NCBI RefSeq assembly: GCF_054482595.1
Contig: NZ_CM137008.1
Direction: 5' to 3' (one strand)
DNA length: 64,000 nucleotides
Shown: positions 10,424 through 39,334 of the stretch, in pieces
Numbering within the stretch: the stretch's first letter is position 1
How the letters are laid out: every line of letters starts with the position of its first letter
Made by a program: the position numbers and the translations under genes
The notes under the pieces: model-generated
Database searches by the model: none
The model's input: the letters and a program-made list of their open reading frames with translations, nothing else
Told to the model about the DNA's origin: nothing

Positions 10424-10451
10424 TCTTTACTGTGTTTACTAAGGAGTAGCT

Positions 10452-18094: not shown

Positions 18095-18095
18095 A

Positions 18096-18172: not shown

Positions 18173-18174
18173 GT

Positions 18175-18250
<76 letters not shown>

Positions 18251-18253
18251 TAT

Positions 18254-18328
<75 letters not shown>

Positions 18329-20645: not shown

Positions 20646-20793
20646 TAACAGTTCCCATCTGTAGGGGAGGGGCGGGTCAAATCTCTGCAACCCTGGCTGC
20701 TCAGTACCGCCGCCTGACCCTTCCTCACATCGCCGCAGGTTCGAAAACTTTTTTTTGGAAATGTGAACAAACGATTGATAGGTAAGACCGATT

Positions 20794-21276
20794 ATGTCAG
20801 GACCTCCGAAAACCCCGCCACGCCTGCATTTGATTCGAGGCAACCCCTCAAAGCGCCCCGTTAAAGACCACAAAAAAACCGCTAAAAAGGATGAAAAAGG
20901 TCTTCCTAAAATTCCGCAGCATTTAGGGGCTCAGGGGAAGTACTGGTTCAGGCGAATGGCGGAAGAGCTGAATGCGGAAGGGATCATTTCTCAGCTTGAT
21001 GCGCGTGCGCTCGAGTTGCTGGTGGAAGCCTACACCGAATATCGGCATCACTGCGAAACACTCGATGTTGAGGGGTATACCTACCGCACGGAAACGCAGA
21101 GCGGTGATGTACTGATTAAGGCGCACCCCGCGGCGGCAATGAAAGCGGATGCCTGGAAGCGGATCCGGGCAATGCTTGCAGAGTTTGGTATGTCACCGGC
21201 AAGCCGGGCTAAAGTAAATATCGCCGGACCGGATGATGTTGATCCGCTGGCGGAGCTTTTAAAAGCGAGAGACTGA
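20794..21276 (+). CDS. Terminase small subunit
   Basis: 160-aa ORF directly upstream of and overlapping terminase large subunit. Confidence 0.65.
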   Translation: MSGPPKTPPRLHLIRGNPSKRPVKDHKKTAKKDEKGLPKIPQHLGAQGKYWFRRMAEELNAEGIISQLDARALELLVEAYTEYRHHCETLDVEGYTYRTETQSGDVLIKAHPAAAMKADAWKRIRAMLAEFGMSPASRAKVNIAGPDDVDPLAELLKARD

Positions 21277-23033
21277 TGGCAAAAGTGGCTGACGGGATCC
21301 GCTACGCCGAACGTGTTGTTGCAGGAGAAATTGTTGCTGGCGAATTTGTCCGCCTGGCCTGCCAGCGTTTTCTTGATGATCTGAAGTACGGCGAAGAGCG
21401 GGGGATTTATTTCAGTGAACCCCGTGCGCAGCACATCCTGAATTTCTACAAATTTGTGCCTCATGTAAAAGGGGCGCTGGCAGGCCAGCCCATTGAACTG
21501 ATGGACTGGCATGTATTTATCCTCATTAATATTTTTGGTTTTGTCATTCCGCTGGTGAATGAAGAGACCGGGGAAGTTGTCATGCGCAGCGATGGCAGCG
21601 GACGTCCGGTGATGGTGCGCCGGTTCCGGACGGCGTACAACGAAGTCGCCCGTAAAAACGCAAAATCAACTCTGTCATCGGGTATCGGCCTGTATATGAC
21701 GGGGGCAGATGGTGAAGGCGGTGCTGAGGTGTATTCAGCCGCCACCACGCGTGACCAGGCCAGAATTGTGTTTGAAGACGCCAAAAATATGGTCAGAAAA
21801 GCCCGGTCGACACTCGGGCGGTTGTTTGATTTCAACAAGCTGGCGATTTACCAGGAGCAGAGCGCATCAAAATTTGAACCGCTTTCCTCGGATGCAAACA
21901 ACCTGGATGGTCTGAACATCCACTGCGCCATTATTGATGAGCTGCATGCACATAAAACCCGCGACGTGTGGGACGTTCTGGAAACGGCAACCGGTGCTCG
22001 CCTGCAGTCCCTGTTATTTGGTATCACCACGGCAGGGTTTAACAAGGAAGGGATTTGTTACGAGCAGCGTGATTACGCCATCAAGGTATTGCGTGGCTAT
22101 AACAGCGATGTGGAGGGCGCTGTAAAAGACGACTCCTACTTTGCGATTATTTACACCCTCGATGAGGGAGATGATCCGTTTGATGAAACGGTCTGGCAGA
22201 AAGCGAATCCCGGCCTGGGCATCTGTAAACGCTGGGATGATCTGCGTCGCCTGGCGAAAAAAGCGAAAGAACAGGTCTCTGCGCGGGTGAATTTTTTTAC
22301 CAAACACATGAATGTGTGGGTAACAGCAGAGTCTGCCTGGATGGACATGATTAAGTGGGAGAAGTGCGAATACATTGCCCCACGACATGAGCTGAAAACG
22401 TATCCCATGTGGGTCGGCGTTGACCTTGCTCATAAGATTGATATCTGTGCGGCGGCAAAACTCTGGCGAACGGATAACGGGCATGTTCATGCCGATTTTA
22501 AATTCTGGCTTCCGGAAGGACGGCTGGAACGATGCTCGCGGCAGCAGGCAGAACTTTACCGGAAGTGGGCGGAGATGGATAAGCTGATTCTGACGGATGG
22601 TGATGTTATCGATCATGCTCAGATAAAAAGTGACTTACTGGAATGGATTGGTGGTGAAAACCTCAGGGAACTGGGATTTGACCCGTGGAGCGCGATGCAG
22701 TTCAGCCTGGCACTGGCTGAAGAAGGGATACCGCTGGTGGAGGTTCCGCAGACGGTTCGTAATCTGTCAGAGGCCATGAAGGAAACGGAATCACTGGTCT
22801 ATGCCGGGCGTTTCCATCACAGCAATCATCCGGTCATGAACTGGATGATGTCTAACGTTACGGTAAAACCGGACAAAAACGACAATATCTTCCCGAATAA
22901 ATCCACGCTGGAAGCCAAAATCGACGGCCCTGTTGCGATGTTTACAGCAATGAGCCGGATGCTGGTCAATGGTGGTGAACCGGAGCTGGATCTGTCTGAA
23001 CATCTGGTCAGCGTGGGCATCCGTTCGCTTTAA
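21276..23033 (+). CDS. Terminase large subunit
   Basis: 585 aa; position and size; ATPase then nuclease-like segments. Confidence 0.8.
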
Positions 23034-23044
23034 CCGAGGTCATT

Positions 23045-23227
23045 ATGTTTCTGATAATTCTCGCGCCACTGGTGGGCGTGCTGGGTGCGCTTTTGCTGGC
23101 GTATGGTGCCTGGCTGATTTATCCCCCGGCGGGTTTTGTTGTTGCCGGGGTGCTGTGCCTGTTCTGGTCGTGGCTGGTGGCGCGATATCTCGACCGAACA
23201 CAGCCGTCTGTCGGCGGAGGTAAATAG
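23045..23227 (+). CDS. Small hydrophobic protein between terminase and portal
   Basis: 60 aa, two predicted TM segments. Confidence 0.4.
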
Positions 23228-24468
23228 TGTTCTTTTCGGGATTATTTCAACGAAAAAGTGACGCGCCGGTGACCACGCCAGCAGAGCTGGCGGATGCCAT
23301 CGGGTTGTCTTACGACACCTATACCGGAAAGCAGATCAGCAGTCAGCGGGCCATGCGACTGACGGCGGTTTTTTCCTGCGTCAGAGTGCTGGCAGAGTCG
23401 GTCGGGATGTTGCCCTGCAATCTGTATCACCTGAACGGCAGCCTGAAACAGAGAGCCACCGGCGAACGTCTGCATAAGCTGATCTCCACGCATCCCAATG
23501 GCTATATGACGCCGCAGGAGTTCTGGGAGCTGGTGGTCACCTGTCTGTGCCTGAGGGGAAACTTTTACGCCTACAAAGTGAAAGCATTTGGCGAAGTGGC
23601 TGAACTGCTGCCCGTCGATCCCGGCTGTGTGGTACCGAAGCTTAACAGTCGCTGGGAGCCGGTCTATCAGGTCACATTCCCGGACGGTTCCACGGATGTA
23701 CTGAGCCAGGAGGATATCTGGCATGTGCGCACGCTGACGCTGGACGGTCTGGTGGGACTGAATCCCATCGCCTATGCCCGCGAGGCAATATCGCTGGCAG
23801 CAGCGACCGAAGAGCACGGGGCCAGACTGTTCAGCAATGGTGCGGTGACGTCCGGTGTGTTGCGTACAGAACAGACGCTGTCGGATCAGGCTTATGAGCG
23901 CCTGAAGAAAGATTTTGAGGAGCGTCACACCGGGCTTGGCAATGCTCACCGCCCGATGATCCTTGAGATGGGGCTGGACTGGAAGTCGATGGCGCTGAAC
24001 GCCGAGGACAGCCAGTTCCTGGAAACCCGCAAGTTTCAGCTTGAAGAAATCTGTCGTCTGTTCCGGGTGCCGTTGCACATGGTGCAGAACACCGATCGCG
24101 CCACCTTCAACAATATCGAAGAGCTGGGGCTGGGATTTATCAACTATTCACTGGTGCCGTATCTGACCCGCATCGAACAGCGGATCAACACCGGACTGGT
24201 ACGAAAAAGTAAGCAGGGCGTTTATTACGCCAAATTTAACGCCGGGGCGTTACTGCGCGGGGATATGAAGTCCCGTTTTGAAGCCTACGCCACCGGGATC
24301 AACTGGGGAATTTACTCTCCCAATGACTGCCGCGACCTGGAAGATATGAATCCGCGTCCCGGTGGTGATGTCTATCTCACACCGATGAACATGACCACGA
24401 AACCCTCCGATGGCAGTAAAGCCGGTAAGCAGAAGGATAACGCCAATGCAGACGAAACAACGTCTTGA
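23227..24468 (+). CDS. Portal protein
   Basis: 413 aa following terminase; GTG start. Confidence 0.75.
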   Translation: MFFSGLFQRKSDAPVTTPAELADAIGLSYDTYTGKQISSQRAMRLTAVFSCVRVLAESVGMLPCNLYHLNGSLKQRATGERLHKLISTHPNGYMTPQEFWELVVTCLCLRGNFYAYKVKAFGEVAELLPVDPGCVVPKLNSRWEPVYQVTFPDGSTDVLSQEDIWHVRTLTLDGLVGLNPIAYAREAISLAAATEEHGARLFSNGAVTSGVLRTEQTLSDQAYERLKKDFEERHTGLGNAHRPMILEMGLDWKSMALNAEDSQFLETRKFQLEEICRLFRVPLHMVQNTDRATFNNIEELGLGFINYSLVPYLTRIEQRINTGLVRKSKQGVYYAKFNAGALLRGDMKSRFEAYATGINWGIYSPNDCRDLEDMNPRPGGDVYLTPMNMTTKPSDGSKAGKQKDNANADETTS

Positions 24469-25096
24469 TGTACCGCTGAGTCTGAAATCTGTCAGTGACT
24501 CCGGTGAGTTTGAAGGGTATGGCTCCGTCTTTGGTGTAAAGGACAGCCACGATGATGTGGTGATGTCCGGGGCATTTGCTGCTTCCCTGCGGGCGTGGAG
24601 TGACAGAAAAGCGTTACCTGCGCTGCTCTGGCAGCACCGCATGGATGAACCCATCGGTGTTTACACCGAAATGAAGGAAGACGATGTCGGGCTTTACGTC
24701 AGGGGACGGTTGCTTATTGATGATGATCCCCTCGCAAAACGCGCACATGCACACATGAAGGCCGGTTCGTTAACCGGCCTTTCTATTGGGTACGTCCTGA
24801 AAGACTGGGAATACGACCGGAGCAAAGAAGCCTTTCTGCTGAAAGAAATCGACCTCTGGGAAGTCAGCCTGGTGACGTTCCCGTCTAACGACGAGGCGCG
24901 GATCAGCGACGTCAAGAACGCACTGGCCCGCGGGGAAATCCCCGAACAGAAAAAAATCGAAAGAGTCCTGCGTGATGTCGGACTCTCCCGTACCCAGGCC
25001 AAAGCATTCATGGCCGGGGGCTATGGCGCACTGTCCCTGCGCGACGCTGAGGATGTGGGCTCTGCACTGAATGCACTGAAAAATCTAAACTTCTAA
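24446..25096 (+). CDS. Prohead protease
   Basis: 217 aa from MQTKQRLDVPL; between portal and capsid. Confidence 0.75.
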   Translation: MQTKQRLDVPLSLKSVSDSGEFEGYGSVFGVKDSHDDVVMSGAFAASLRAWSDRKALPALLWQHRMDEPIGVYTEMKEDDVGLYVRGRLLIDDDPLAKRAHAHMKAGSLTGLSIGYVLKDWEYDRSKEAFLLKEIDLWEVSLVTFPSNDEARISDVKNALARGEIPEQKKIERVLRDVGLSRTQAKAFMAGGYGALSLRDAEDVGSALNALKNLNF

Positions 25097-25110
25097 TCAG
25101 GAGAAATACG

Positions 25111-26316
25111 ATGGCGGTTGATATTAAAGATGTCGAACAGGTCGCGCAGGAGCTGCAGCAGAAGTTTGACGACTTCAAAGCAAAGAACGACAAGCGCGTG
25201 GATGCGATTGAGCAGGAAAAAGGCAAACTTGCCGGGCAGGTGGAAACCCTGAACGGGAAACTCAGCGAGCTGGAAAACCTCAAAAGCGATCTTGAAAAAG
25301 AGCTGCTTGAGCTGAAACGTCCGGCAGGTGGTGCGCAAAATAAACTGGCCACCGAGCATAAAGAAGCGTTTGTGGGCTTCCTGCGTAAAGGCCGTGAAGA
25401 TGGTCTGCGCGATCTGGAGCGCAAGGCATTACAGGTGGGCACCGATGAAGACGGCGGCTATGCCGTGCCGGAAGCACTGGATCGCAACATTCTCACCCTG
25501 CTGAAAGATGAAGTGGTGATGCGCCAGGAAGCCACGGTGATCAGCGTTGGTGGTTCCGACTACAAAAAACTGGTGAATCTGGGCGGCACGGCTTCCGGAT
25601 GGGTTGGCGAGACTGACGCGCGCTCCCAGACTGCCACCTCAAAACTGGGCCTGATTGAACCTTTCATGGGGGAAATCTACGGTAACCCGCAGGCCACCCA
25701 GAAAATGCTGGATGATGCCTTTTTCAACGTGGAAGCATGGATCAACAGCGAGCTGGCAACCGAATTTGCCGAACAGGAAGAAATTGCCTTTACCACCGGC
25801 GATGGTACCAAGAAGCCGAAAGGGTTCCTGGCGTATGAGTCCACGGATGAAACAGACAAGGTCCGGGCGTTCGGCAAACTTCAGCATATTGTATCCGGCG
25901 AAGCGACGGCGGTGACCGCAGATGCCATTATCAAACTGATTTACACGCTGCGTAAGGCACACCGCACTGGCGCGAAGTTCATGATGAACAACAACAGTCT
26001 GTTTGCCATCCGTCTGCTGAAAGACAGTGAGGGTAACTATCTGTGGCGTCCGGGGCTGGAGCTGGGGCAGCCGTCCTCTCTGGCGGGTTACGCTATCGCT
26101 GAAAACGAACAGATGCCGGATATTGCCGCTGATGCGAAAGCCATTGCATTTGGTAACTTCAAACGGGGTTACACCATCGTTGACCGTATCGGTACCCGCA
26201 TTCTGCGTGACCCGTACACCAATAAACCGTTTGTCGGTTTTTATACCACCAAGCGCACCGGCGGCATGCTGGTCGATTCGCAGGCCATCAAACTGCTGAA
26301 GATTGCAGCGGCGTAA
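25111..26316 (+). CDS. Major capsid protein
   Basis: 401 aa with N-terminal coiled-coil delta-domain-like region followed by capsid-like body. Confidence 0.8.
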   Translation: MAVDIKDVEQVAQELQQKFDDFKAKNDKRVDAIEQEKGKLAGQVETLNGKLSELENLKSDLEKELLELKRPAGGAQNKLATEHKEAFVGFLRKGREDGLRDLERKALQVGTDEDGGYAVPEALDRNILTLLKDEVVMRQEATVISVGGSDYKKLVNLGGTASGWVGETDARSQTATSKLGLIEPFMGEIYGNPQATQKMLDDAFFNVEAWINSELATEFAEQEEIAFTTGDGTKKPKGFLAYESTDETDKVRAFGKLQHIVSGEATAVTADAIIKLIYTLRKAHRTGAKFMMNNNSLFAIRLLKDSEGNYLWRPGLELGQPSSLAGYAIAENEQMPDIAADAKAIAFGNFKRGYTIVDRIGTRILRDPYTNKPFVGFYTTKRTGGMLVDSQAIKLLKIAAA

Positions 26317-26367
26317 TCATTCAGGGGGCGCAGAAGTGCGCCCCCTGTTCTGACAGGTGAAAGAATC

Positions 26368-26556
26368 ATGATCCTGAAACAAGATCTGAAATGGTCACCG
26401 GACGGTATGCGTGTTGAGATTATTCGGGCCGGTGAGTATGAAGATAAAGAATTACCCGAACGGGTACGCGAAATTGCCACTGCAGCTGGGATTGTCTCTG
26501 ATAAGAGAACACCTGTTGCGCGGGGGGCTGATAAGTCTAAAAAACAGCATTCATAG
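26368..26556 (+). CDS. Hypothetical small protein
   Basis: 62-aa ORF after capsid gene. Confidence 0.35.
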   Translation: MILKQDLKWSPDGMRVEIIRAGEYEDKELPERVREIATAAGIVSDKRTPVARGADKSKKQHS

Positions 26557-26567
26557 AGGTTGCCCAA

Positions 26568-26873
26568 ATGATGCCCACTCTGGAAGAGCTTCGTGTTCAG
26601 TGCCGGATTGATGATGACAATGAACAGGAGAATTCTCTTCTTATGATGTATCTGGCTGCTGCCAGGGAAGAGGCTGAAAAGTTTTTAAACCGGACGCTTT
26701 ACGATGAAACTGTTTCTGAGCAGGATACGACCGGGCTTGTAATAACACCTCTGATAAAACTGCGTCTTATGCAACTGGTTGGCTACTGGTACGAGAACAG
26801 GGAAATGCAGGATGCAGTGCCTGATTTTTTCTATACCGGACTGCGGATGTATCGATTTCATCCCGGAACATAG
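26568..26873 (+). CDS. Head-tail connector protein
   Basis: 101 aa; position in head-completion block. Confidence 0.55.
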   Translation: MMPTLEELRVQCRIDDDNEQENSLLMMYLAAAREEAEKFLNRTLYDETVSEQDTTGLVITPLIKLRLMQLVGYWYENREMQDAVPDFFYTGLRMYRFHPGT

Positions 26874-26881
26874 GAGGATTC

Positions 26882-27220
26882 ATGCAGGCAGGAAGATTAC
26901 GTGATCGTGTGGTTATTCTGAATGCCACCACCGTTCGGTCTCCGTCAGGGCACCCTGTGGAAACAATGACGGAGGGGGCAACCATATGGGCAGAAGTTAA
27001 GGGGATCAGTGGCAGGGAGAGAATATCCGGAGGCGCAGAAACTGCTCAGGCTACAGTGAGGGTCTGGATGAGATTCCGGCGAGATGTAACAGCAACTTCA
27101 TGTCTGAAAGTGCTGACTGGTGCATTCAAAGGCGCGATTCTGAGTATAGACGGTCCGCCGATACCGGATGCTCGTGCCACACGGCTTGAGATACTCTGTT
27201 CTCAGAAGGGGAATGTGTGA
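26882..27220 (+). CDS. Head closure / head-tail adaptor protein
   Basis: 112 aa; position. Confidence 0.55.
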   Translation: MQAGRLRDRVVILNATTVRSPSGHPVETMTEGATIWAEVKGISGRERISGGAETAQATVRVWMRFRRDVTATSCLKVLTGAFKGAILSIDGPPIPDARATRLEILCSQKGNV

Positions 27221-27666
27221 TGGATTTCAGTCTTGATTTTTCAGGTCTGGCGGATATTGCACGGGATCTGGAGACGCTCAGCAGGGCAGAAAACAATAAG
27301 GTACTGCGCGATGCCACCCGTGCCGGTGCTGAAGTTATGCGGGATGCAGTTGTTGAACGTGCGCCGGAGCGAACCGGGAAACTGAAGAAAAATGTGGTTG
27401 TTCTCACTCAGCGTTCAAAGCGTCGGGGGGAAATTATCTCGGGTGTCCACATTCGTGGACGGAACCTGCGAACCGGAAACAGTGATAACAGCATGAAAGC
27501 CAGTGATCCCCGAAATGCGTTTTACTGGCGCTTTGTGGAGCTGGGAACGATAAACATGCCCGCGCATCCGTTCATTCGCCCGGCTTTCGATACGACAGAG
27601 GAACTGGCAGCACAGATTGCCATACAGCGAATGAATCAGGCTATTGATGAGGTCTTAAGTAAATGA
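27217..27666 (+). CDS. Head-tail joining protein
   Basis: 149 aa; overlapping start with upstream gene. Confidence 0.55.
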   Translation: MMDFSLDFSGLADIARDLETLSRAENNKVLRDATRAGAEVMRDAVVERAPERTGKLKKNVVVLTQRSKRRGEIISGVHIRGRNLRTGNSDNSMKASDPRNAFYWRFVELGTINMPAHPFIRPAFDTTEELAAQIAIQRMNQAIDEVLSK

Positions 27667-28007
27667 GAGAGACCACACTGTATTCCCTGCTGTCTCAACT
27701 GGCCGGAGGACAGGTTTATCCTTATGTGGTCCCGCTGACGGAGGGAAAGCCTGCGGTATCTCCGCCATGGCTGGTATTTTCTGTGGTGTCTGACACTGCG
27801 TCTGATGTGCTTGATGGTCAGGCTGAATCCAGAATTACCGTGCAGATCGATGTCTGGGCAACAGTACCTGATGACGCAGATGATATCCGTGAGCAGGCGC
27901 TTGATGCGGTAAGGCAACTTGCACCCTCCGTTATTTCTAAAACTCAGGGTTATGATCCTGATTCCCGTCTGAGCAGAGCCACGCTTGAATTTCAGGTAAT
28001 AGCCTGA
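27663..28007 (+). CDS. Tail completion protein
   Basis: 114 aa; precedes major tail gene. Confidence 0.5.
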   Translation: MRETTLYSLLSQLAGGQVYPYVVPLTEGKPAVSPPWLVFSVVSDTASDVLDGQAESRITVQIDVWATVPDDADDIREQALDAVRQLAPSVISKTQGYDPDSRLSRATLEFQVIA

Positions 28008-28026
28008 GGTCGTTAATGATTTTACC

Positions 28027-28049
28027 CACCCGCCGCTGGCGGGTTTTTT
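28027..28049 (+). terminator. Hairpin + T-run upstream of major tail gene (possible attenuator)
   Basis: cccgccgctggcggg followed by ttttttatttt. Confidence 0.5.
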
Positions 28050-28066
28050 ATTTTCAGGAGACGAGT

Positions 28067-28771
28067 ATGTCCTCTAATTTTGAGCGTTCGCAACTGACGA
28101 AAATTATGATTTCGTCTGCACCGGTAACAGCAGAAACCCTGGATTCTGCCAGCTATCTTGGCCTGAGCTGTACAATCAAAGAGGTGCAGTTTACCGCAGG
28201 ACAAAAGCAGGATATTGATGTCACCACGCTGTGTTCTGTTGAGCAGGAAAATATTAACGGCCTTGGTGCCGCGTCAGAGATTTCCATGTCAGGCAACTTT
28301 TACCTCAATGCTGCCCAGAACGCGTTGCGCAGTGCCTATGACAATGACACCACGTATGGCTTTAAAGTTATTTTTCCGTCAGGCAACGGATTTACCTTTA
28401 TGGCAGAGGTGCGTCAGCATACCTGGTCTGCAGGAACTAATGGTGTTGTGGCTGCAACGTTTTCCCTGCGCCTGAAAGGTAAACCTGTGCTGACGACAGA
28501 GCCGCTGAAAGTGAAGGTCGATTTAAACAGCACGCTGCAGGTTTCTGCCGGAGCGAAACTCGAAATGGTGGTTGAGGCTGCCGGTGGTGTGCCGCCTTAT
28601 TCTTATGTCTGGAAGAAAGGTAGTTCTCCTGTTTCCGGACAGACGGCGGCAACATTCAGTAAGGCATCAGCAGCATCAGGTGATGCCGGTGCGTATACCT
28701 GCGAGATTTCTGATTCAGCAAGCCCTGTTAACAAGGTGACCTCCACTTCCTGCACTGTTACCGTCAGTTAA
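28067..28771 (+). CDS. Major tail protein with C-terminal Ig-like domain
   Basis: ATG 28067 after aggag; C-terminal segment GGVPPYSYVWKKGSSPVSGQTAATF...GAYTCEISDSA. Confidence 0.7.
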   Translation: MSSNFERSQLTKIMISSAPVTAETLDSASYLGLSCTIKEVQFTAGQKQDIDVTTLCSVEQENINGLGAASEISMSGNFYLNAAQNALRSAYDNDTTYGFKVIFPSGNGFTFMAEVRQHTWSAGTNGVVAATFSLRLKGKPVLTTEPLKVKVDLNSTLQVSAGAKLEMVVEAAGGVPPYSYVWKKGSSPVSGQTAATFSKASAASGDAGAYTCEISDSASPVNKVTSTSCTVTVS

Positions 28772-29157
28772 TGAGGATAGATGTGATGACTAAAAATATC
28801 CGCAATCTGGCACTGGCAACGATGTCGGGGTTTCGCCATAAAACTGTTGATGTGCCTGAATGGGAAGGGGCAACGGTTGTATTACGGGAACCTTCTGCAG
28901 AAGCCTGGTTGCGCTGGCAGGAGATCGTTAAAGCAAAAGATGATGAGACACCGTTATCCGTTGCGGAGCGCGCCCGCCGAAATCTGGAGGCAGATGTTGA
29001 ACTGTTCATTGATGTTCTGTGTGATACCGGACTGCAACCTGTATTTTCAGAGGATGATCGTGAACAGGTGATTGCCGTGTATGGCCCGGTGCATGCGCGG
29101 CTTCTTCGGCAGTCTCTGGAACTGATCAGTGATGCCGGCGAGGTTAAAAAAAAGTAG
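28771..29157 (+). CDS. Tail assembly chaperone (lambda G-like); 3' end has slippery site
   Basis: ORF ends ...GEVKKK* on A-AAA-AAG at 29148-29154; alternative start ATG 28786. Confidence 0.65.
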   Translation: MRIDVMTKNIRNLALATMSGFRHKTVDVPEWEGATVVLREPSAEAWLRWQEIVKAKDDETPLSVAERARRNLEADVELFIDVLCDTGLQPVFSEDDREQVIAVYGPVHARLLRQSLELISDAGEVKKK

Positions 29158-29459
29158 CGCTTCCGGGGATGCGTTTTCTGATGATGCTGGCGCTCAGGAT
29201 GGGGCGCACATTGTCAGAGTTACGCCGGGAAATGTCCGCATCAGAAATCATGATGTGGGCAGAATTTGACAGGTTCAGCCCGCTGGGTGACGAGCGGGCT
29301 GATATCCGGGCTGCCCAGATAGTTTCTGCGGTTTACGGTGCGCAGGGTGTCAAAGTCCCACTGAATGATGCGCTTCTTCAGTGGGAACAAGAGCAGACAG
29401 AAGGCGTCTCAGATCCATTTGCCGGACTGGAAAACGCGCTTTTAATAGTGTCTCAGTGA
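28771..29459 (+). CDS. Tail assembly chaperone GT-like fusion made by -1 programmed frameshift
   Basis: Downstream ORF 29169..29459 is in the -1 frame relative to G and lacks its own SD. Confidence 0.55.
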
Positions 29460-29469
29460 GTCAACATAA

Positions 29470-29488
29470 CCGCTTCGGCGGTTTTTTT
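29470..29488 (+). terminator. CCGCTTCGGCGG hairpin + U-run between chaperone and tape measure genes
   Basis: ccgcttcggcgg followed by ttttttt. Confidence 0.45.
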
Positions 29489-29498
29489 CGTCCGGAGA

Positions 29499-32400
29499 AT
29501 GAGTGTGGCGACATTACGTGAACTGATTATTAAAATCTCGGCAAATTCCCGGTCATTCCAGTCAGAGATCTCCCGGGCTTCGCGTATGGGGCAGGATTAC
29601 TACCGTACCATGCAGAACGGAGGCCGGCAGTCCGCTGCTGCATCCCGTGAAATGCGGCGTGCACTGGCAGAAGTGACGGATCAGATAAATACAGCTAAAT
29701 CTTCGGCACTGAATATGGCGGGGGCATTTGCCGGAGCTTTTGCTACCGGTCATCTTATTTCTCTCGCCGATGAGTGGAATTCAGTAAATGCCCGTCTGAA
29801 GCAGGCTTCACAGTCCAGTGATGATTTTCAGGTATCACAACGTGAATTAATGGCAATCAGCCAGAGAACGGGAACGGCGTTTTCTGATAACGCCAGCCTT
29901 TTTGCCCGCTCTGCAGCTTCCATGCGGGAGTATGGCTACAGTTCTGAGGAGGTACTGAAAGTCACCGAGGCGATCTCCACGGGCCTGAAATTATCCGGTG
30001 CCAGTACAGCAGAAGCCAGTTCGGTGATCACGCAGTTCAGTCAGGCACTGGCGCAGGGAGTGCTGCGCGGTGAAGAATTTAACTCTGTGAATGAGAACGG
30101 CGATCGTGTTATTCGTGCGCTGGCTGCGGGAATGGGTGTTGCCCGTAAGGATCTGAAGGCCATGGCGGATAACGGAAAACTGACCGCCGATAAGGTTGTT
30201 CCTGCACTGATTAGTCAGCTTGGGGCGTTGCGTGATGAATATGCAGCAATGCCTGATACTGTTTCATCCTCTGCAACCAAAGTTGAAAACGCCTTTATGG
30301 CCTGGGTTGGTGGTGCGAACGAGGCAAGCGGAGTGACAAAGACACTCACCGGGGTGTTGAATGGTGTTGCAGACAATATGGATACCGTGGCTGCTGCAGC
30401 TGGCGCACTGGTTGCCGTCGGGGTAGCCCGATATTTTGGCAATATGGCGTCGTCTGCTGGATCTGCAACTGCCGGATTAATTACTGCAGCCAGAAACGAA
30501 GTGGCTCTTGCTGAAGCGCAACTTCGGGGGACACAGATAGCAACCGCCAGGGCGCGTGCGGCGGTTTATCGTGCGCAACAGGCGGTTGTTGCTGCTCGCG
30601 GTACCGAAAGGCAGGCCGCAGCAGAAGCGAAGCTGACAGCTGCCCAGGCGTCACTTACCCGTAATATTGCGGCCAGAACAGCGGCACAGACAACGCTGAA
30701 TACTGTCACGTCAGTGGGGAGTCGTCTGTTAAGTGGTGCGCTGGGGTTGGTTGGTGGTGTGCCGGGACTCGTCATGCTGGGGGCGACGGCCTGGTACACG
30801 ATGTATCAGAATCAGGAGCAGGCCAGAGAATCTGCACGCCAGTATGCCGCAACAATCGACGAAATTCGCCAGAAAACGTCGGCAATGTCGCTTCCTGAAG
30901 CGTCAGATAATGAGGAAAAGACGCGGCAGGCACTTGATGAGCAAAATAGGTTAATTGACGAGCAGAAAAGTAAGATTAAATCCTTACAGGAAAAAATTGC
31001 TGGCTATCAGTATGTGCTGGCAAACCCGGGCTGGACAACCGATAACGGTTTTATGATTAACCACATGATGTCGGTAAAAACTGTCACAGAAGGGCTTGCA
31101 GAAGCAACAAATCAACTGGCAGTTGAACAGTCCCGTCTCACACAAATGCAGGGCAAAGCGCAATCCATTCAGGATGTGCTTGCCGGGCTGGAGGAGCGAC
31201 GGGTGGCGTTGATCCGTCAACAGGCCGCGGAACAAAACAAAGCGTATCAGTCCCTGTTGATCATGAATGGGCAGCATACCGAGTTTAATCGCCTTCTCGG
31301 GCTCGGTAATGAATTACTTCAGCAGCGACAGGGGCTGGTGAATGTACCGTTACGGCTACCACAGGCAACCTTGGATGATAAACAGCAGACCGCACTGAAT
31401 AACAGTGAGCGCGAACTGGCTCTGTCCCGCCTGAAGGGGGAAGCCCGTGAGCGTGCCCGCCTGGGTTATGCTGCGGATGATCTCGGCTTTGTGGGAGAGG
31501 CGTATCAGACAGCCAGACAGAATTATATCAATAACTCACTGGATGCCTGGCGAAATAACCAGGCAAATAAACCCAAAGCGCATAAAAAGACCGAAGCGGA
31601 AAAAACAGAAGATATTTATAAACGGCTGATTAAACAGCAAAAAGAACAAATAGCACTGGCAGGTCAGAATACTGAACTGGCTAAGATGAAATATCAGGTC
31701 AGTCAGGGCGAATTATCAACCCTGTCAGAAGCGCAGAAAAAAACGCTTTTACAGAATGCGGCACTCATCGACCAGAAAAAGATTCGTGAGCAGCTTGCCG
31801 CGTATGAAAGCAGTCTGGCGGACAGTAATGCCAGCGCCCGGGCATCTGACGACGCGCAGTTGCTGGGATATGGTGAAGGCTCACGGATGCGTGAACGACT
31901 CCAGGAAATGTGGAGTATCCGGCAGGCGTTTGAGCAGAAAAATAACGAGCTGCTGAGACAGTATCAGGCCGGAGAAATTGAAGAAGCCCTGTGGAAACAG
32001 GAGAAAGAACTGAATAAAAAATATCTGGAAGAGCGTCTCAGCGATCAGCAGGATTATTATGCAAAGGCTGATGCTTTACGCAGTAACTGGAATGCCGGAC
32101 TCCAGGAGGGGCTGACGAACTGGGCAGACAGTGCCACTGATTATGCTTCGCAGGCGGCAGATGCTGTCGTTTCCACTATGGACGGGCTGGTATCAAATAT
32201 TTCCGATGCACTGGCCGGAAATGTTGTGGACTGGAGAAACTGGGGGAGTTCAATTCTCCAGGAAGTTTCAAAAATTCTGATGAACGCTGCCATCGTTAAC
32301 GGGCTGAAGTCACTTTCCAAAAGCATGTCCGGTGCCGGAGGATGGCTTGGTACAGTCGGCGACTGGCTGTCCGGTGCAGTGGCAAACGCAAAAGGTGGTG

Positions 32401-32744
32401 TTTATACATCGGCAAATCTGAGTGCTTACAGTAACACTATTGTGGATACACCGACGTATTTTGCTTTTGCGAAAGGTGCCGGGTTGATGGGCGAGGCCGG
32501 GCCTGAAGCAATCATGCCACTGACACGGGCAGCGGACGGCTCTCTTGGGGTCAGGGCCATTGGAAATGTGAATGGTGGCGGTGGATTTGTTTATTCTCCC
32601 GTGTATCACATCAGCATTCAGAATCAAGGGAGCAATGGCGAGATAGATGCGCGCTCAGCCAGGGGACTGGTGGATCTGATCGACAGCAGGGTTGTGTCAA
32701 TTATGCAGTCATCACGTCGGGACGGAGGATTATGCAGTGCCTGA
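29499..32744 (+). CDS. Tail tape measure protein
   Basis: 1081 aa, Ala/Gln-rich coiled-coil-like; position after G/GT. Confidence 0.85.
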   Translation: MSVATLRELIIKISANSRSFQSEISRASRMGQDYYRTMQNGGRQSAAASREMRRALAEVTDQINTAKSSALNMAGAFAGAFATGHLISLADEWNSVNARLKQASQSSDDFQVSQRELMAISQRTGTAFSDNASLFARSAASMREYGYSSEEVLKVTEAISTGLKLSGASTAEASSVITQFSQALAQGVLRGEEFNSVNENGDRVIRALAAGMGVARKDLKAMADNGKLTADKVVPALISQLGALRDEYAAMPDTVSSSATKVENAFMAWVGGANEASGVTKTLTGVLNGVADNMDTVAAAAGALVAVGVARYFGNMASSAGSATAGLITAARNEVALAEAQLRGTQIATARARAAVYRAQQAVVAARGTERQAAAEAKLTAAQASLTRNIAARTAAQTTLNTVTSVGSRLLSGALGLVGGVPGLVMLGATAWYTMYQNQEQARESARQYAATIDEIRQKTSAMSLPEASDNEEKTRQALDEQNRLIDEQKSKIKSLQEKIAGYQYVLANPGWTTDNGFMINHMMSVKTVTEGLAEATNQLAVEQSRLTQMQGKAQSIQDVLAGLEERRVALIRQQAAEQNKAYQSLLIMNGQHTEFNRLLGLGNELLQQRQGLVNVPLRLPQATLDDKQQTALNNSERELALSRLKGEARERARLGYAADDLGFVGEAYQTARQNYINNSLDAWRNNQANKPKAHKKTEAEKTEDIYKRLIKQQKEQIALAGQNTELAKMKYQVSQGELSTLSEAQKKTLLQNAALIDQKKIREQLAAYESSLADSNASARASDDAQLLGYGEGSRMRERLQEMWSIRQAFEQKNNELLRQYQAGEIEEALWKQEKELNKKYLEERLSDQQDYYAKADALRSNWNAGLQEGLTNWADSATDYASQAADAVVSTMDGLVSNISDALAGNVVDWRNWGSSILQEVSKILMNAAIVNGLKSLSKSMSGAGGWLGTVGDWLSGAVANAKGGVYTSANLSAYSNTIVDTPTYFAFAKGAGLMGEAGPEAIMPLTRAADGSLGVRAIGNVNGGGGFVYSPVYHISIQNQGSNGEIDARSARGLVDLIDSRVVSIMQSSRRDGGLCSA

Positions 32745-33078
32745 GTCTGAAGTTTTTAACTGGATCCCCCGCGAGGGGATGGAGACGACACGAAAGCCAT
32801 CTGTTATTACGGTAAAGTTCGGTGACGGATATGAACAGCGACGGGCTGGTGGTCTGAATGCAGATCTGAAAACGTTTAAACCGGTATTTCGTGTCACGGA
32901 TGAATATTCCCGTGCCGCGCTGGACAGTTTTTTATCCCGTCATGCCGGGGTTCGTGCTTTTTTGTGGCGTCCGCCAAAACACAACAGGACTGTCCGGGTT
33001 GTCTGCAGGGAGTGGAGCATTTCGGATAATGCCATGTATACCGATTTTAACTGTACCTTTGAAGAGGTCACTCACTGA
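32737..33078 (+). CDS. Minor tail protein M (lambda gpM-like)
   Basis: GTG start overlapping tape measure stop; ...KPSVITVKFGDGYEQRRAGGLNADLKTF... resembles lambda M. Confidence 0.7.
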   Translation: MPESEVFNWIPREGMETTRKPSVITVKFGDGYEQRRAGGLNADLKTFKPVFRVTDEYSRAALDSFLSRHAGVRAFLWRPPKHNRTVRVVCREWSISDNAMYTDFNCTFEEVTH

Positions 33079-33776
33079 TGCAGGATATACAGCAGGAAAC
33101 ACTCAATGAGTGCACTAAAACGGAGCAATCCGCGCTGGTCGTGCTCTGGGAAATTGATCTGACAGAGGTCGGCGGAGATCGTTATTTCTTCTGTAATGAG
33201 CAGAACGAAAAAGGTGAACCAGTCACCTGGCAGGGGCGGCAGTATCAGGCCTATCCCATTCAGGGAAGTGGATTTGAGATGAACGGCAAAGGAGCCAGTG
33301 CAAGGCCAACGCTGAAAGTCTCTAATCTGCACGGCATGGTCACCGGGATGGCGGAAGACCTGCAGAGTCTGGTCGGCGGAACGGTGGTCAGGCGTAAGGT
33401 TTACGCCCGTTTTCTGGATGTGGTGAACTTCGTCAACGGAAACAGCGAAGCCGATCCGGAGCAGGAGGTGATCAGCCGCTGGCGCATCGAGCAGTGCAGC
33501 GAACTGAGCGCGGTGAGTGCCTCTTTTGTACTGTCCACGCCGACGGAAACGGATGGTGCTGTTTTTCCGGGACGTACCATGCTGGCCAACACCTGCACCT
33601 GGACCTATCGCGGTGATGAGTGCGGTTATCACGGTCCGGCGGTTGCGGATGAATATGACCAGCCGACGTCCGATATCACGAAGGATAAATGCAGCAAATG
33701 CCTGAGTGGTTGTAAGTTCCGCAATAACGTCGGCAACTTTGGCGGCTTCCTTTCCATTAACAAACTTTCGCAGTAA
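33078..33776 (+). CDS. Minor tail protein L (lambda gpL-like)
   Basis: 232 aa with C-terminal Cys cluster CTWTYRGDECGY...CSKCLSGC. Confidence 0.8.
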   Translation: MQDIQQETLNECTKTEQSALVVLWEIDLTEVGGDRYFFCNEQNEKGEPVTWQGRQYQAYPIQGSGFEMNGKGASARPTLKVSNLHGMVTGMAEDLQSLVGGTVVRRKVYARFLDVVNFVNGNSEADPEQEVISRWRIEQCSELSAVSASFVLSTPTETDGAVFPGRTMLANTCTWTYRGDECGYHGPAVADEYDQPTSDITKDKCSKCLSGCKFRNNVGNFGGFLSINKLSQ

Positions 33777-33781
33777 ATCCC

Positions 33782-34525
33782 ATGACAGAGACAGAATCAG
33801 CGATTCTGGCGCACGCCCGGCGATGTGCGCCAGCGGAGTCGTGCGGCTTCGTGGTGAGAACGCCGGAGGGGGAAAGATATTTTCCCTGCGTGAATATCTC
33901 CGGTGAGCCGGAGGATTATTTCCGGATGTCGCCTGAGGACTGGCTGCAGGCAGAGATGCAGGGTGAGATTGTGGCGCTGGTCCACAGCCACCCCGGTGGT
34001 CTGCCCTGGCTGAGTGAGGCTGACCGGCGGCTGCAGGTGCAGAGTGATTTGCCGTGGTGGCTGGTCTGCCGGGGTGAGATTCATAAATTCCGCTGTGTGC
34101 CGCATCTCACCGGGCGGCGCTTTGAGCACGGGGTGACGGACTGTTACACGCTGTTCCGGGATGCTTACCATCTGGCGGGGATTGAGATGCCGGATTTTCA
34201 TCGTGAGGATGACTGGTGGCGTAACGGCCAGAATCTCTATCTTGACAATATGGAGGCGACTGGTTTTTACCGTGTCGCACTGACAGAGGCGCAGCCGGGC
34301 GATGTGCTGCTGTGCTGTTTTGGTTCATCGGTGCCGAATCATGCCGCCATTTACTGCGGCGACGGCGAGCTGCTGCACCATATTCCTGAACAACTGAGCA
34401 AACGAGAGAGGTATACCGACAAATGGCAGCGACGCACACACTCCCTCTGGCGTCACCGGGCATGGCACGCATCTGCCTTTACGGGAATTTACAACGATTT
34501 GGCCGCCGCATCGACCTTCGTGTGA
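33782..34525 (+). CDS. Tail tip assembly protein K (lambda gpK-like)
   Basis: 247 aa; MTETESAILAHARRCAPAESCGFVV...HSHPGG; close to remembered lambda K. Confidence 0.8.
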   Translation: MTETESAILAHARRCAPAESCGFVVRTPEGERYFPCVNISGEPEDYFRMSPEDWLQAEMQGEIVALVHSHPGGLPWLSEADRRLQVQSDLPWWLVCRGEIHKFRCVPHLTGRRFEHGVTDCYTLFRDAYHLAGIEMPDFHREDDWWRNGQNLYLDNMEATGFYRVALTEAQPGDVLLCCFGSSVPNHAAIYCGDGELLHHIPEQLSKRERYTDKWQRRTHSLWRHRAWHASAFTGIYNDLAAASTFV

Positions 34526-35070
34526 AAACGGGGGCCGAAGCCATCCGGGCGCTGGCCATGCAGATCCCGGCGTTTCGTCAGAAACTGAGTGACGGCTGGT
34601 ATCAGGTACGGATTGCCGGGCGTGATGCAGGTGAAACCGAATTGTCTGCCCGTCTTAATGAGCCGCTGGCAAATGGTGCCGTGATCCACATCGTTCCGCG
34701 TCTGGAGGGGGCCAAAAGTGGCGGTGTGTTTCAGGCGGTGCTGGGTGCGGCGCTGATTGCGGTGGCATGGTGGAACCCTGTGGGCTGGCTGGGGGCCGCG
34801 GCTGTATCGGGTATGTATGCAGCAGGGGCCAGTATGATCCTGGGTGGTGTGGCGCAGATGCTGGCACCGAAAGCCAGGACGCCCACGGCAGCCAGTACAG
34901 ATAACGGCAAACAGAACACGTATTTCTCGTCACTGGATAACATGGTTGCCCAGGGCAATGTTCTGCCCGTTCTGTACGGTGAAATGCGTGTGGGGTCGCG
35001 GGTGGTATCTCAGGAGATCAGCACGGCAGATGAAGGTGATGGTGGTCAGGTTGTGGTGATTGGTCGCTGA
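34423..35070 (+). CDS. Tail assembly protein I (lambda gpI-like)
   Basis: 215 aa MAATHTLPLASPGMARICLYG...; overlaps 3' end of K. Confidence 0.7.
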   Translation: MAATHTLPLASPGMARICLYGNLQRFGRRIDLRVKTGAEAIRALAMQIPAFRQKLSDGWYQVRIAGRDAGETELSARLNEPLANGAVIHIVPRLEGAKSGGVFQAVLGAALIAVAWWNPVGWLGAAAVSGMYAAGASMILGGVAQMLAPKARTPTAASTDNGKQNTYFSSLDNMVAQGNVLPVLYGEMRVGSRVVSQEISTADEGDGGQVVVIGR

Positions 35071-35130
35071 TGAAAAATGTTTTATGTGAAACCGCCTCCG
35101 GGCGGTTTTGTCGTTTATGGAGCGTGAGGA

Positions 35131-38100
35131 ATGGGTAAAGGCAGCAGTAAGGGGCATACCCCGCGCGAAGCGAAGGACAACCTGAAGTCCACGCAGTTGC
35201 TGAGTGTGATTGATGCCATCAGCGAAGGTCCGGTTGAAGGTCCGGTGGATGGATTAAAAAGCGTGCTGCTGAACAGTACGCCGGTGCTGGACAGCGAGGG
35301 GAATACCAATATCTCCGGCGTCACGGTGGTGTTCCGGGCAGGCGAGCAGGAGCAGACACCGCCGGAGGGATTTGAATCCTCCGGCTCCGAGACGGTGCTG
35401 GGTACGGAAGTGAAATATGACACGCCGATCACCCGGACCATCACGTCTGCAAACATCGACCGTCTGCGTTTTACCTTCGGCGTGCAGGCACTGGTGGAAA
35501 CCACCTCAAAGGGGGACAGGAATCCGTCGGAAGTCCGCCTGCTGGTTCAGATCCAGCGTAATGGTGGCTGGGTGACGGAAAAAGACATCACCATTAAGGG
35601 CAAAACCACCTCGCAGTATCTGGCCTCGGTGGTGGTGGGTAACCTGCCGCCGCGCCCGTTTAATATCCGGATGCGCAGGATGACGCCGGACAGCACCACA
35701 GACCAGCTGCAGAACAAAACGCTCTGGTCGTCATACACCGAAATCATCGATGTGAAACAGTGCTACCCGAACACGGCACTGGTCGGCGTGCAGGTGGATT
35801 CGGAGCAGTTCGGCAGCCAGCAGGTGAGCCGTAATTATCATCTTCGCGGGCGCATTCTGCAGGTGCCGTCGAACTATAACCCGCAGACGCGGCAATACAG
35901 CGGTATCTGGGACGGAACGTTAAAACCGGCATACAGCAACAACATGGCCTGGTGTCTGTGGGATATGCTGACCCACCCGCGCTACGGCATGGGGAAACGT
36001 CTTGGTGCGGCGGATGTGGATAAATGGGCGCTGTATGTCATCGGCCAGTACTGCGACCAGTCAGTGCCGGACGGCTTTGGCGGCACGGAGCCGCGCATCA
36101 CCTGTAATGCGTACCTGACCACACAGCGCAAGGCGTGGGATGTGCTCAGTGATTTCTGCTCGGCGATGCGCTGTATGCCGGTATGGAACGGGCAGACGCT
36201 GACGTTCGTGCAGGACCGACCGTCGGATAAGGTGTGGACCTATAACCGCAGTAATGTGGTGATGCCGGATGATGGCGCGCCGTTCCGCTACAGCTTCAGC
36301 GCCCTGAAGGACCGCCATAATGCCGTTGAGGTGAACTGGATTGACCCGGACAACGGTTGGGAGACAGCGACAGAGCTTGTGGAGGACACACAGGCCATTG
36401 CCCGTTACGGTCGTAACGTCACGAAGATGGATGCCTTTGGCTGTACCAGCCGTGGGCAGGCGCACCGCGCCGGGCTGTGGCTGATTAAAACGGAACTGCT
36501 GGAGACGCAGACCGTGGATTTCAGCGTGGGTGCTGAAGGGCTTCGCCATGTACCGGGCGATGTCATTGAAATCTGCGATGATGACTATGCCGGTATCAGC
36601 ACCGGTGGTCGCGTGCTGGCGGTGAACAGCCAGACCCGGACGCTGACGCTCGACCGTGAAATCACGCTGCCATCCTCCGGTACCACGCTGATAAGCCTGG
36701 TTGACGGAAGTGGTAATCCGGTCAGCGTGGAGGTCCAGTCCGTCACCGACGGCGTGAAGGTGAAAGTGAGCCGGGTTCCTGACGGCGTTGCCGAATACAG
36801 CGTGTGGGGACTGAAGCTGCCGACGCTGCGCCAGCGCCTGTTCCGCTGTGTGAGTATCCGTGAGAATGACGACGGTACGTATGCCATCACCGCCGTGCAG
36901 CATGTACCGGCAAAAGAGGCCATCGTGGATAACGGGGCGCACTTTGACGGCGACCAGAGCGGAACGGTAAACGGTGTCACGCCGCCAGCAGTACAGCACC
37001 TGACCGCAGAAGTCACCACAGACAGCGGGGAATATCAGGTGCTGGCGCGCTGGGACACGCCGAAGGTGGTGAAGGGCGTGAGCTTCCTGCTTCGCCTGAC
37101 CGTGGCAGCGGATGACGGCAGTGAGCGGCTGGTCAGCACGGCCCGGACGACGGAAACCACATACCGCTTCACGCAGCTGGCGCTGGGGAATTACAGGCTG
37201 ACAGTCCGGGCGGTAAATGCGTGGGGACAGCAGGGCGATCCGGCATCGGTATCGTTCCGGATTGCCGCACCGGCAGCACCGTCGCGGATTGAGCTGACGC
37301 CGGGCTATTTTCAGATAACCGCCACGCCGCATCTTGCGGTTTATGATCCGACGGTACAGTTTGAGTTCTGGTTCTCGGAAAAACGGATTGCTGATATCAG
37401 GCAGGTTGAAACCAGCGCGCGTTATCTTGGTACGGCGCTGTACTGGATAGCCGCCAGTATCAATATCAAACCGGGCCATGATTATTATTTTTACGTTCGC
37501 AGTGTGAACACCGTTGGCAAATCGCCATTCGTGGAGGCTGTTGGTCAGCCGAGTGATGATGCGTCCGGCTATCTGGATTTTTTCAAAGGAGAGATAGGGA
37601 AAACCCATCTGGCTCAGGAGCTGTGGACGCAGATTGATAACGGTCAGCTTGCGCCTGACCTGACTGAAATCAGGACGTCCATAACGGATGTCAGCAATGA
37701 AATCACCCAGACCGTTAACAAGAAACTGGAAGACCAGAGTGCAGCGATCCAGCAGATACAGAAGGTTCAGGTTGATACAAATAATAACCTGAACAGCATG
37801 TGGGCAGTGAAGCTGCAGCAGATGCAGGACGGACGCCTTTATATTGCGGGTATCGGTGCCGGTATTGAGAACACCCCCGACGGCATGCAGAGTCAGGTGC
37901 TGCTGGCTGCAGACCGGGTGGCATTTATTAACCCGGCGAATGGTAACACCACTCCTGCACTGGTCACACAGGGCGGACAGACGTTTATTAATGAGGCGCT
38001 GATCAAGTTCCTTATTGCTCCCACGATTACCAGTGGTGGCAATCCTCCGGCATTCTCCCTGACACCTGACGGAAAGCTGACTGCTAAAAATGCGGATATC

Positions 38101-38607
38101 AGTGGCAGTGTGAATGCGAACGCCGGGGCGCTCAACAACGTCACGATTAATGAGAGCTGTACTATTAAGGGGATGCTTGATGCTAACCAGGTGCGTGGTG
38201 ATTTTGTAAAAACGACAGGGCATCGATTTCCGCACCCCGGAGAATACCCACAGGGTTCACTTACCGTTCATATTAAGGACGATCATGCCTTTGACAGGCA
38301 GATTATAATTCAACCAATCATGTACGGTGCACCACCATATTTTAGTAAAAATGATGGCGCTAATATCTACGATACCTGCAGATTAATTGTGCGCAAAAAT
38401 GGCAATGTAATCTATGACAAATCCACTAGTGGTTCGAAAAGGACAACAGTCGTGTACAGCAATATCATTGATATGCCAGTGGGGGACGGAGATGTAATAT
38501 TAACATTTGAAGTTCAGTCGAGCGGCAGTGGAGATCCCAGAACATGGATCAGTGATTTAATGGTCTCGGTAACGAAAAAAGCCGCATCCGGTATCAGTAT
38601 CAGTTGA
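35131..38607 (+). CDS. Host specificity / central tail fibre protein J
   Basis: 1158 aa; position after I; lambda J-like N-terminal and central regions. Confidence 0.85.
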
Positions 38608-38627
38608 AATTTTTATAACCCCAATAC

Positions 38628-38653
38628 GGGCGCCAGAAATGGCGCCTTTTTTA
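38628..38653 (+). terminator. Rho-independent terminator after J
   Basis: gggcgccagaaatggcgcc followed by ttttttatt. Confidence 0.7.
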
Positions 38654-38676
38654 TTGCAGAAAAGCGAGAGGTAATT

Positions 38677-39276: not shown

Positions 39277-39334
39277 TTAGCCAGGTAACACAGTGTTATG
39301 ACAGCCCGCCGGTTCAGGCGGGCTTTTTTGTGGG

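Follow-up and report, generated by a model that had tools for sequence, protein, structure and literature searches.

Introduction

What is the virion module of this Escherichia coli prophage made of, and where do its parts meet? The window analyzed here is a stretch of 64,000 nucleotides that holds E. coli chromosome with a lambdoid prophage of about 39 kb at a tRNA-Ser gene. An initial annotation described the structural genes as a mosaic, in which HK97-type head and packaging genes are joined to a lambda-type tail tip. Modular patchwork of this kind is textbook phage biology and already known, and in lambdoid phages the head genes and the tail genes are co-transferred as separate modules (PMC9836094). 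We compared the module with HK97 (Byrnievirus HK97, AF069529), lambda (J02459), and prophages in complete E. coli genomes to place its seams.

Results

The module is the late (virion) head-and-tail operon of a common, widespread E. coli lambda-like prophage, and its HNH, terminase, portal, protease, capsid, connector, tail, and tip genes are all intact and in the expected order (Table 1). Pfam matches, which were well above curated cut-offs for the module genes, confirmed that the protease gene lies between those for portal and capsid and that an HNH gene lies upstream, just outside the start of the module as first delimited. When we followed identity to lambda, HK97, and E. coli prophages along the module, it fell into at least five blocks, and identity was uniform to neither lambda nor HK97. 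The mosaic is therefore real with respect to these two phages, but its seams had been misplaced.

Table 1. Blocks and features of the virion module, in window coordinates
Feature	Position	Strand	Basis or closest comparison
Block 1: HNH, TerS, and TerL body	20295–22975	+	
HNH endonuclease gene	20295–20645	+	PF01844, E 1.9e-16; 96.4% nt to HR12-1 prophage (L006)
TerS, P27/Terminase_4 family	20794–21276	+	PF05119, E 2.3e-25
TerL	21276–23033	+	PF03354 and PF20441; 29% aa to HK97 gp2
Block 2: portal-protease-capsid (capsid-assembly) cassette, including start of orf62	23016–26444	+	97.5% nt over 3,429 nt to E. coli strain 20 prophage (L004)
ymfR-like orf60	23045–23227	+	
Portal	23227–24468	+	PF04860, E 5e-108; 32% aa to HK97
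S78 prohead protease	24446–25096	+	PF04586, E 1e-31; 36% aa to HK97
HK97-fold major capsid protein	25111–26316	+	PF05065, E 2e-79; 26% aa to HK97 gp5
orf62 3' part and gp6-like head-tail adaptor (26568–26873)	26445–26873	+	PF05135, E 3.9e-11
Block 3: HK97-like neck, tail shaft, chaperones, and tape measure (gp7 head closure, gp10-like, gp11/tail completion, major tail protein with Ig domain, G, T, tape measure)	26882–32744	+	Pfam
A AAA AAG slippery heptamer, G-T -1 frameshift	29148–29154	+	G frame, just before G stop
M, ring protein between tube and tip	32737–33078	+	PF05939
Start of lambda-like sequence, M stop/L start overlap (CTGATG)	33060–33080	+	Identity profile and base-by-base view
Block 4: lambda-type tip cassette, L, K (JAB + NlpC/P60), I, and first 2.5 kb of J (residues 1 to ~823)	33078–37627	+	Pfam, sliding identity profile
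Block 5: divergent J C-terminus and lom, then lambda-like stf and tfa	37628–42843	+	
Divergent J C-terminus (tip fibre, receptor-binding domain) and lom homologue	37628–39200	+	36–68% nt to lambda, one 80% patch
Side tail fibre stf (972 aa, patchy) and assembly protein tfa	39341–42843	+	Pfam

The likeness of the head and packaging genes to HK97 holds for gene order, which agrees all the way from terminase to J, and for the portal, S78 protease, and capsid families. It does not extend to sequence, since the head proteins are only 26 to 36% identical in amino acids to their HK97 counterparts (gp3 to gp5 for the portal-protease-capsid cassette), and neither TerS nor the gp6-like protein has a recognizable counterpart in HK97. 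Across the head genes (20794–26880), blastn found no match to HK97, and a global alignment gave 35 to 45% nucleotide identity. By these comparisons, the module is not a close relative of HK97 at genus-level nucleotide similarity across its head genes. BLASTP likewise found no match of TerS to HK97 gp1 or lambda Nu1, and neither BLASTP nor blastn matched the lambda head, neck, and shaft genes (Nu1, A, W, B, C, Nu3, D, E, FI, FII, Z, U, V, G, and T) in the window, which by these genes is not a Lambdavirus. The HNH gene is 148 bp upstream of TerS and is thus terminase-adjacent, as in the HK97-type packaging module; the gap between the two is likely the cos region. Portal, protease, and capsid genes abut at 23227–26316 with no intervening ORF and, as in HK97, no separate scaffold gene. 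The capsid profile match begins at residue 115 of 401, after a 114-residue N-terminal extension that may correspond to the scaffold-like delta domain of the HK97-type module, and in a three-sequence MAFFT alignment the identity to HK97 gp5 is too low to place equivalents of the chain-mail cross-link residues K169, N356, and E363 reliably.

A capsid cassette of nearly the same sequence occurs in prophages of the ST64B/e14 type, which have contractile tails. The capsid protein is 96% identical in amino acids to Sb6 of Salmonella phage ST64B, and the protease accession (WP_001193631.1) is the same in the window and in the contractile-tail prophages. The prophage of E. coli strain 20 has only the ymfR-portal-protease-capsid cassette in common with the window; sheath, tube, and baseplate genes come next there, and the body of its TerL is different, while the window encodes a non-contractile HK97/lambda-type tail. 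One capsid cassette is therefore common to prophages with contractile and with non-contractile tails. The HR12-1 prophage shows the reciprocal pattern: it lies beside the same downstream flank (zinT-msrQP) and has 20295–22975 (96.4%) and 26871–37618 (95.3%) in common with the window, with a different portal-capsid cassette between them. The same pieces thus occur with different partners.

These two comparisons also place the first seam inside TerL. The break relative to HR12-1 falls at 22975, and the block in common with strain 20 starts at 23016, so that the body of the protein ends at 22975 and the last 19 codons (22976–23033) go together with the portal genes. Two unrelated TerL bodies that occur with the same portal both end in ...GIRSL, and the window's TerL body, where it occurs with another portal (HR12-1 type), ends in ...DEDLLIL.

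A single HK97/lambda breakpoint between the capsid and tape measure genes, with HK97-type sequence upstream and lambda-type sequence downstream, was the junction first proposed. A seam does exist in this interval (26444–26871), and the tape measure carries the lambda-type C-terminal domain PF09718. However, what this seam divides is a capsid cassette of the ST64B/e14 type and a neck and shaft that are HK97-like. The 3' part of orf62 and the gp6-like adaptor between them have no blastn match to either the strain 20 or the HR12-1 prophage and represent a third sequence type, and the junction with HR12-1 falls at the gp6 stop codon. HK97 cannot be aligned until 26,880; from there to the tape measure, nucleotide identity is 55 to 77%, and the counterparts of gp7, gp10, gp11, gp12, gp13, and gp16 are 63, 80, 51, 71, 64, and 55% identical in amino acids. 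These proteins, which include the major tail protein, G, and the tape measure, have no match to lambda FII, Z, U, V, G, or T; the only lambda match of this block is to the C-terminus of H (26% aa). As in HK97, G and T form a frameshift pair, with the -1 frame (T) open from 29148, and the tape measure has an HK97-type domain as well. It is only from L onward that identity to lambda is high. The identity profiles and the comparison with the two prophages thus refute a single breakpoint in this interval, and we regard that arrangement as exceedingly improbable.

The tail-tip genes M, L, K, I, and J are in the lambda order with matching families (PF05939, PF05100, JAB + NlpC/P60, PF06805, and the J domain set) over 32737–38607, and all five had been taken as close to lambda. 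This holds for L (91% nt, 93% aa), K (94% nt, 95% aa), and the first 2,497 nt of J (95% nt), and in part for I (79% nt, 78% aa), which has a divergent central patch at 34600–34870. It fails for M, which is about equally far from lambda M (40% aa) and HK97 gp17 (39% aa). M travels with the shaft block, and its protein accession is identical in strains SM107 and HR12-1. Lambda-like sequence therefore starts at the M stop/L start, where identity to lambda steps from about 50% to 84 to 97% within about 20 nt; many partial matches in E. coli genomes start at this point as well (query 595/596, window 33074/33075).

Stepwise rather than gradual shifts of this kind bear on whether any exchange took place. 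Under vertical descent from an ancestor common with lambda and HK97, gene-specific rates would account for the identity profile, and the order and families of the genes from TerL to J are indeed as in HK97, while rates are known to vary among structural genes. Rate variation does not, however, give a step from 50% to 90% within 20 nt at a start codon, nor does it explain a cassette that is nearly identical to that of prophages with unalignable flanks and a different type of tail. We consider descent without exchange to be scarcely credible.

We also found that the tip does not set lambda apart from HK97 in architecture. HK97 has its own M-L-K-I-J homologues in the same order, which are 32 to 34% identical in amino acids to those of lambda and, for M to J, 35 to 39% identical to those of the window. 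The description of an HK97 head joined to a lambda tail tip as two architectures consequently fails, and the module is a mosaic of alleles rather than of architectures. BLASTP found no match to the HK97 morons gp15, gp22, and gp23 among the ORFs of the window module, and gp15 falls in an alignment gap.

Identity to lambda drops again at about 37,600, where the break in J matches the point at which the Ig_J_second domain stops (aa 818). The C-terminal 328 aa of J, which form the receptor-binding end and differ from lambda, show no more than 70% identity to almost all phage records, and Lom is 44% identical in amino acids to lambda Lom. Lambda-like sequence then returns in the side fibre, with 80% aa identity of the Stf N-terminus to lambda orf401, 69% of the Stf C-terminus to orf314, and 94% of Tfa to orf194. 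The parts of the module that resemble lambda are thus L, K, I, the first 823 residues of J, the stf N-terminus, and tfa, at 78 to 95% aa and 79 to 95% nt identity and in the same order.

To determine how common the module is, we counted its presence in the 5,426 complete E. coli genomes at a coverage of at least 80%. The whole 18.5-kb module was present in 262 of them, usually at 97 to 100% identity. The blocks differ widely in frequency: the head block was found in 275 genomes, the shaft block in 893, and the tip cassette in 4,313. Genomes with any match to the tip cassette had a median of 3 matching places, partial and full ones counted alike. No phage in the collection searched was uniform across the module, the best having 72 to 80% coverage at 95 to 98% identity; in this the phages differ from complete E. 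coli genomes, which do match it uniformly. The plaque-forming phages Evi and phi467 and related induced E. coli prophages are 96 to 98% identical in nucleotides to the window from the head to the tail-shaft genes, with coverage of 52 to 80% across these and related records, several of which are partial, with matches that end at window 33078–35616 (query 12879–15417). The structural module of Evi and phi467 has been described as common among E. coli prophages, with an HK97-like neck of Virfam Type 1, cluster 3 (PMC6969025).

These counts also speak to whether the mosaic could have arisen through misassembly, or could be what is left of a cryptic prophage that has lost virion production. In favor of decay, the annotation of strain SM107 reports frameshifts in the integrase and cro/cI-like genes. 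In the window, on the other hand, the integrase ORF is uninterrupted (341 aa) and every structural ORF of the module is intact; the 18.5 kb are identical in two independent complete genomes, and plaque-forming or induced phages have the same structural genes, with phage Evi, which forms plaques, carrying a related module (PMC6969025). Given these identical copies and the intact ORFs, we rejected both a chimera and a remnant, either of which is very unlikely.

Discussion

Our comparisons indicate that the module was, with high probability, built by repeated recombination among co-resident lambdoid prophages, in which each piece is a cassette of mutually fitting proteins. The exchanges themselves are documented by pairwise sequence comparisons, which do not give direction or order. 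The exchanged cassettes comprise the terminase body with HNH; portal, protease, capsid, and adaptor with the last 19 TerL residues; the neck, tube, chaperones, tape measure, and M ring; and further the L-K-I-J hub, the receptor-binding end of J, and the side fibre.

Each seam falls at a gene or domain boundary, and these boundaries match physical interfaces of the virion, such as TerL tail/portal, adaptor/stopper, and M hexamer/L-J hub. In the lambda structure, the gpM hexamer sits atop the trimeric gpL/gpJ hub (PMC11101478). Since the seams lie at physical interfaces, we propose that hybrids would still assemble. Such seams may survive because the interfaces are tolerant, as suggested by the lambda structure together with the three TerL/portal combinations. 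The likeness to HK97 and lambda hides this finer patchwork.

The module is a clean, well-populated example of lambdoid modular exchange, of little importance beyond annotation, although it would suit teaching and could supply material to surveys of recombination junctions. From the TerL endings, we tentatively suggest, while considering it somewhat unlikely, that in the P27/HK97 class of large terminases the last ~19 TerL residues might be a self-contained portal-docking peptide that is exchanged with the portal cassette. If this pattern extended to many prophages, naturally occurring recombinants would locate the determinant of terminase-portal specificity for the class.

The virion genes follow the HK97 layout, with near-lambda identity in part of the tail tip

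Gene families were called by Pfam with scores that far exceed the curated cut-offs, and ORF and Pfam evidence together confirmed that every virion gene named in the initial annotation is present, unbroken, and in the order proposed. All ORFs of the module are intact. The heptamer A AAA AAG lies immediately ahead of the G stop codon and the -1 frame opens there, matching the expectation for a G-T frameshift. The spacing from T to the tape measure gene is about 45 bp (29459-29505); HK97 has its moron gp15 here (HK97 8142-8441), following the chaperone genes, and the window has no equivalent of it.

Features of the prophage, with identity to HK97 (AF069529) and lambda (J02459); families from HNH to J are Pfam calls
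Feature	Position	Description	HK97	Lambda
tRNA-Ser(cga)	4108-4197	one prophage end		
Four tRNA genes	18019-18328	anticodon CAT, Lys, Thr, Gly		
HNH	20295-20645			
TerS		P27/Terminase_4 family	no match	no match
TerL			29% aa	no match
TerL, last 19 codons	22976-23033			
Portal			32% aa	no match
Protease		S78; between portal and capsid	36% aa	no match
Capsid		HK97 family	26% aa, partial	no match
gp6-like		gp6-type adaptor (neck)	no match	no match
gp7		head-closure protein (neck)	63% aa	no match
gp10		HK97-gp10-like protein	80% aa	no match
gp11		tail completion protein	51% aa	no match
Major tail		with Ig domain	71% aa	no match
G		chaperone	64% aa	no match
Heptamer	29148-29154	A AAA AAG		
T		chaperone		
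Tape measure		HK97-type and lambda-C domains	55% aa	26% aa, C-terminus only
M		tail tip	39% aa	40% aa
L		tail tip	35% aa	93% aa / 91% nt
K	33782-34525	tail tip; JAB and NlpC/P60, 247 aa	36% aa	95% aa / 94% nt
I		tail tip	35% aa	78% aa / 79% nt
J		tail tip	33% aa	83% aa overall; first 2,497 nt 95% nt
ORF antisense to J	36061-38235	minus strand, 724 aa		
J C-terminus	37628-38607	about 328 aa		
Lom				44% aa
stf	39341-42259	one 972-aa ORF		N-terminus 80% aa (orf401)
Tfa			35% aa	94% aa
31-bp direct repeat	43221-43251	tRNA-Ser(cga) 3' end; other prophage end		

Since HK97 itself carries relatives of M, L, K, I, and J, which its own annotation labels "similar to lambda M/L/K/I/J", the window has the HK97 layout throughout as regards gene families and order, and the mosaicism lies in the degree to which each piece resembles one relative or another. 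From M to J, lambda and HK97 share 32-34% amino acid identity. The initial annotation had joined an HK97-type head to a lambda-type tip at a junction between the capsid and tape measure genes. The gene set and order stood, and L, K, and the first 2,497 nt of J are indeed close to lambda (91-95% nt), with I lower; M, however, is not, and the junction was placed wrongly, as near-lambda identity starts at M/L (33060-33080).

In global alignments, the M region is about 50% identical to lambda, and identity is 84-97% from the overlap of the M stop and L start. Within I, identity dips centrally to 57-60% (34600-34870), and it collapses at about 37,600 before coming back up near 39,200. In J, the break comes where the second Ig-like domain ends (residue 818), before the tip-fibre and receptor-binding domains. 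The head region could not be aligned meaningfully with HK97 (35-45% nt); similarity to that phage, at 55-77% nt, sets in at gp7 (about 26,880). A probe spanning the M/L junction was fully covered in 1,261 E. coli genomes, while in many other genomes the match starts at the L start.

Blocks of the module occur with alternative partners

We searched E. coli genomes block by block and found, at a coverage of at least 80%, the head block in 275 genomes, the shaft block in 893, and the L to J block in 4,313; the tip query had a median of 3 matching places (full or partial) per genome with any. Partial head-block matches divide at query positions 2179-2222, the 3' end of TerL. The prophage of E. coli strain 20 has only 23016-26444 in common with the window (97.5% nt identity, with an identical protease accession), and its portal cassette is followed by sheath, tube, baseplate, and gp47-family genes. 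The HR12-1 prophage, which also adjoins zinT-msrQP, shares 20295-22975 (96.4%) and 26871-37618 (95.3%) but carries a portal-protease-capsid-adaptor cassette unlike that of the window. Sb6 of Salmonella phage ST64B is 96% identical to the capsid protein at the amino acid level. Since partners alternate and block frequencies are unequal, the blocks move independently, and the data show that they have been exchanged.

Seams may coincide with protein interfaces

Most likely, the unit of exchange would be a set of mutually contacting proteins, with seams falling at the interfaces between such sets. Comparison with HR12-1 puts the right seam at the gp6-type adaptor's stop codon, which groups the adaptor with the portal, and gp7, the stopper, with the tail. 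The M/L seam corresponds to the place in the lambda tail structure where the gpM hexamer meets the pseudo-hexameric gpL/gpJ hub (PMC11101478). We infer that recombinants survive only where seams hit tolerant interfaces, in agreement with published analyses of lambdoid phages, in which head and tail modules are co-transferred (PMC9836094).

Variation in the last 19 codons of TerL follows the portal cassette and not the TerL body. Strain 20 TerL, with the same portal and another body, ends in ...LSDHIESYGIRSL and shares the final ...GIRSL with the window's, whereas HR12-1 TerL, with the same body and another portal, ends differently, in ...FLSTLDPDEDLLIL. The C-terminus of lambda gpA binds proheads. 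Judging from this co-variation, the last 19 residues may form a portal-docking tail; the C-terminal domains of the HK97 terminase lie directly beneath the portal (PMC10359639).

The module belongs to a lambdoid prophage and is common in E. coli

The prophage, about 39 kb long, is delimited by tRNA-Ser(cga) and a second copy of the last 31 bp of this gene. The E. coli SM107 and O157:H16 Santai chromosomes are 100% identical to 18.5 kb around the module, and at least 80% of this 18.5-kb module was found in 262 of 5,426 complete E. coli genomes. By its RefSeq gene content, the SM107 element is a lambdoid prophage, in which an exonuclease, dicB/ydfABC, a repressor region, RusA, Q, 4 tRNAs, and lysis genes lead to the virion genes, with yodB-zinT-msrQP downstream. 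Outside the structural genes, the window differs from SM107 (window 4250-5275 and 9900-10750); tRNA coordinates are shifted by 86 and 47 nt, and the integrase ORF (341 aa) is unbroken in the window but annotated as frameshifted in SM107. The four tRNA genes come after Q and before the lysis genes; the one with anticodon CAT is Met according to ARAGORN and Ile according to RefSeq, and the HR12-1 prophage has another set (Ile, Arg, Arg) at the equivalent position.

The head and shaft of Evi, a plaque-forming phage, are 96.7% nt identical to those of the window. According to the authors of the Evi study, the structural module of Evi and phage phi467 is frequent among prophages of E. coli and has a neck like that of HK97 (PMC6969025). 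The phenomenon is the mosaicism for which lambdoid phages are well known, and the module that shows it here is a common one in E. coli.

Observations on K, J, and stf

The K homology to lambda (lambda 14133-14875) begins 143 nt before the start that J02459 gives for K, with K at 199 aa in that record, so that annotated start appears to make K too short. The ORF antisense to J spans 731 stop-free codons, and in lambda J the same antisense frame stays free of stops for 705 codons; the window ORF is probably an effect of codon composition, with 65% GC at J third codon positions. The J C-terminus, comprising the tip fibre and receptor-binding domain, is unlike that of lambda, and of the 764 phage records that it matched, nearly all are at most 70% identical to it. 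In Stf, the C-terminus is 69% identical to orf314 (aa), with unrelated repeats between the two lambda-like ends, and the window stf is an intact, patchy form of the side-fibre gene that laboratory lambda has split.
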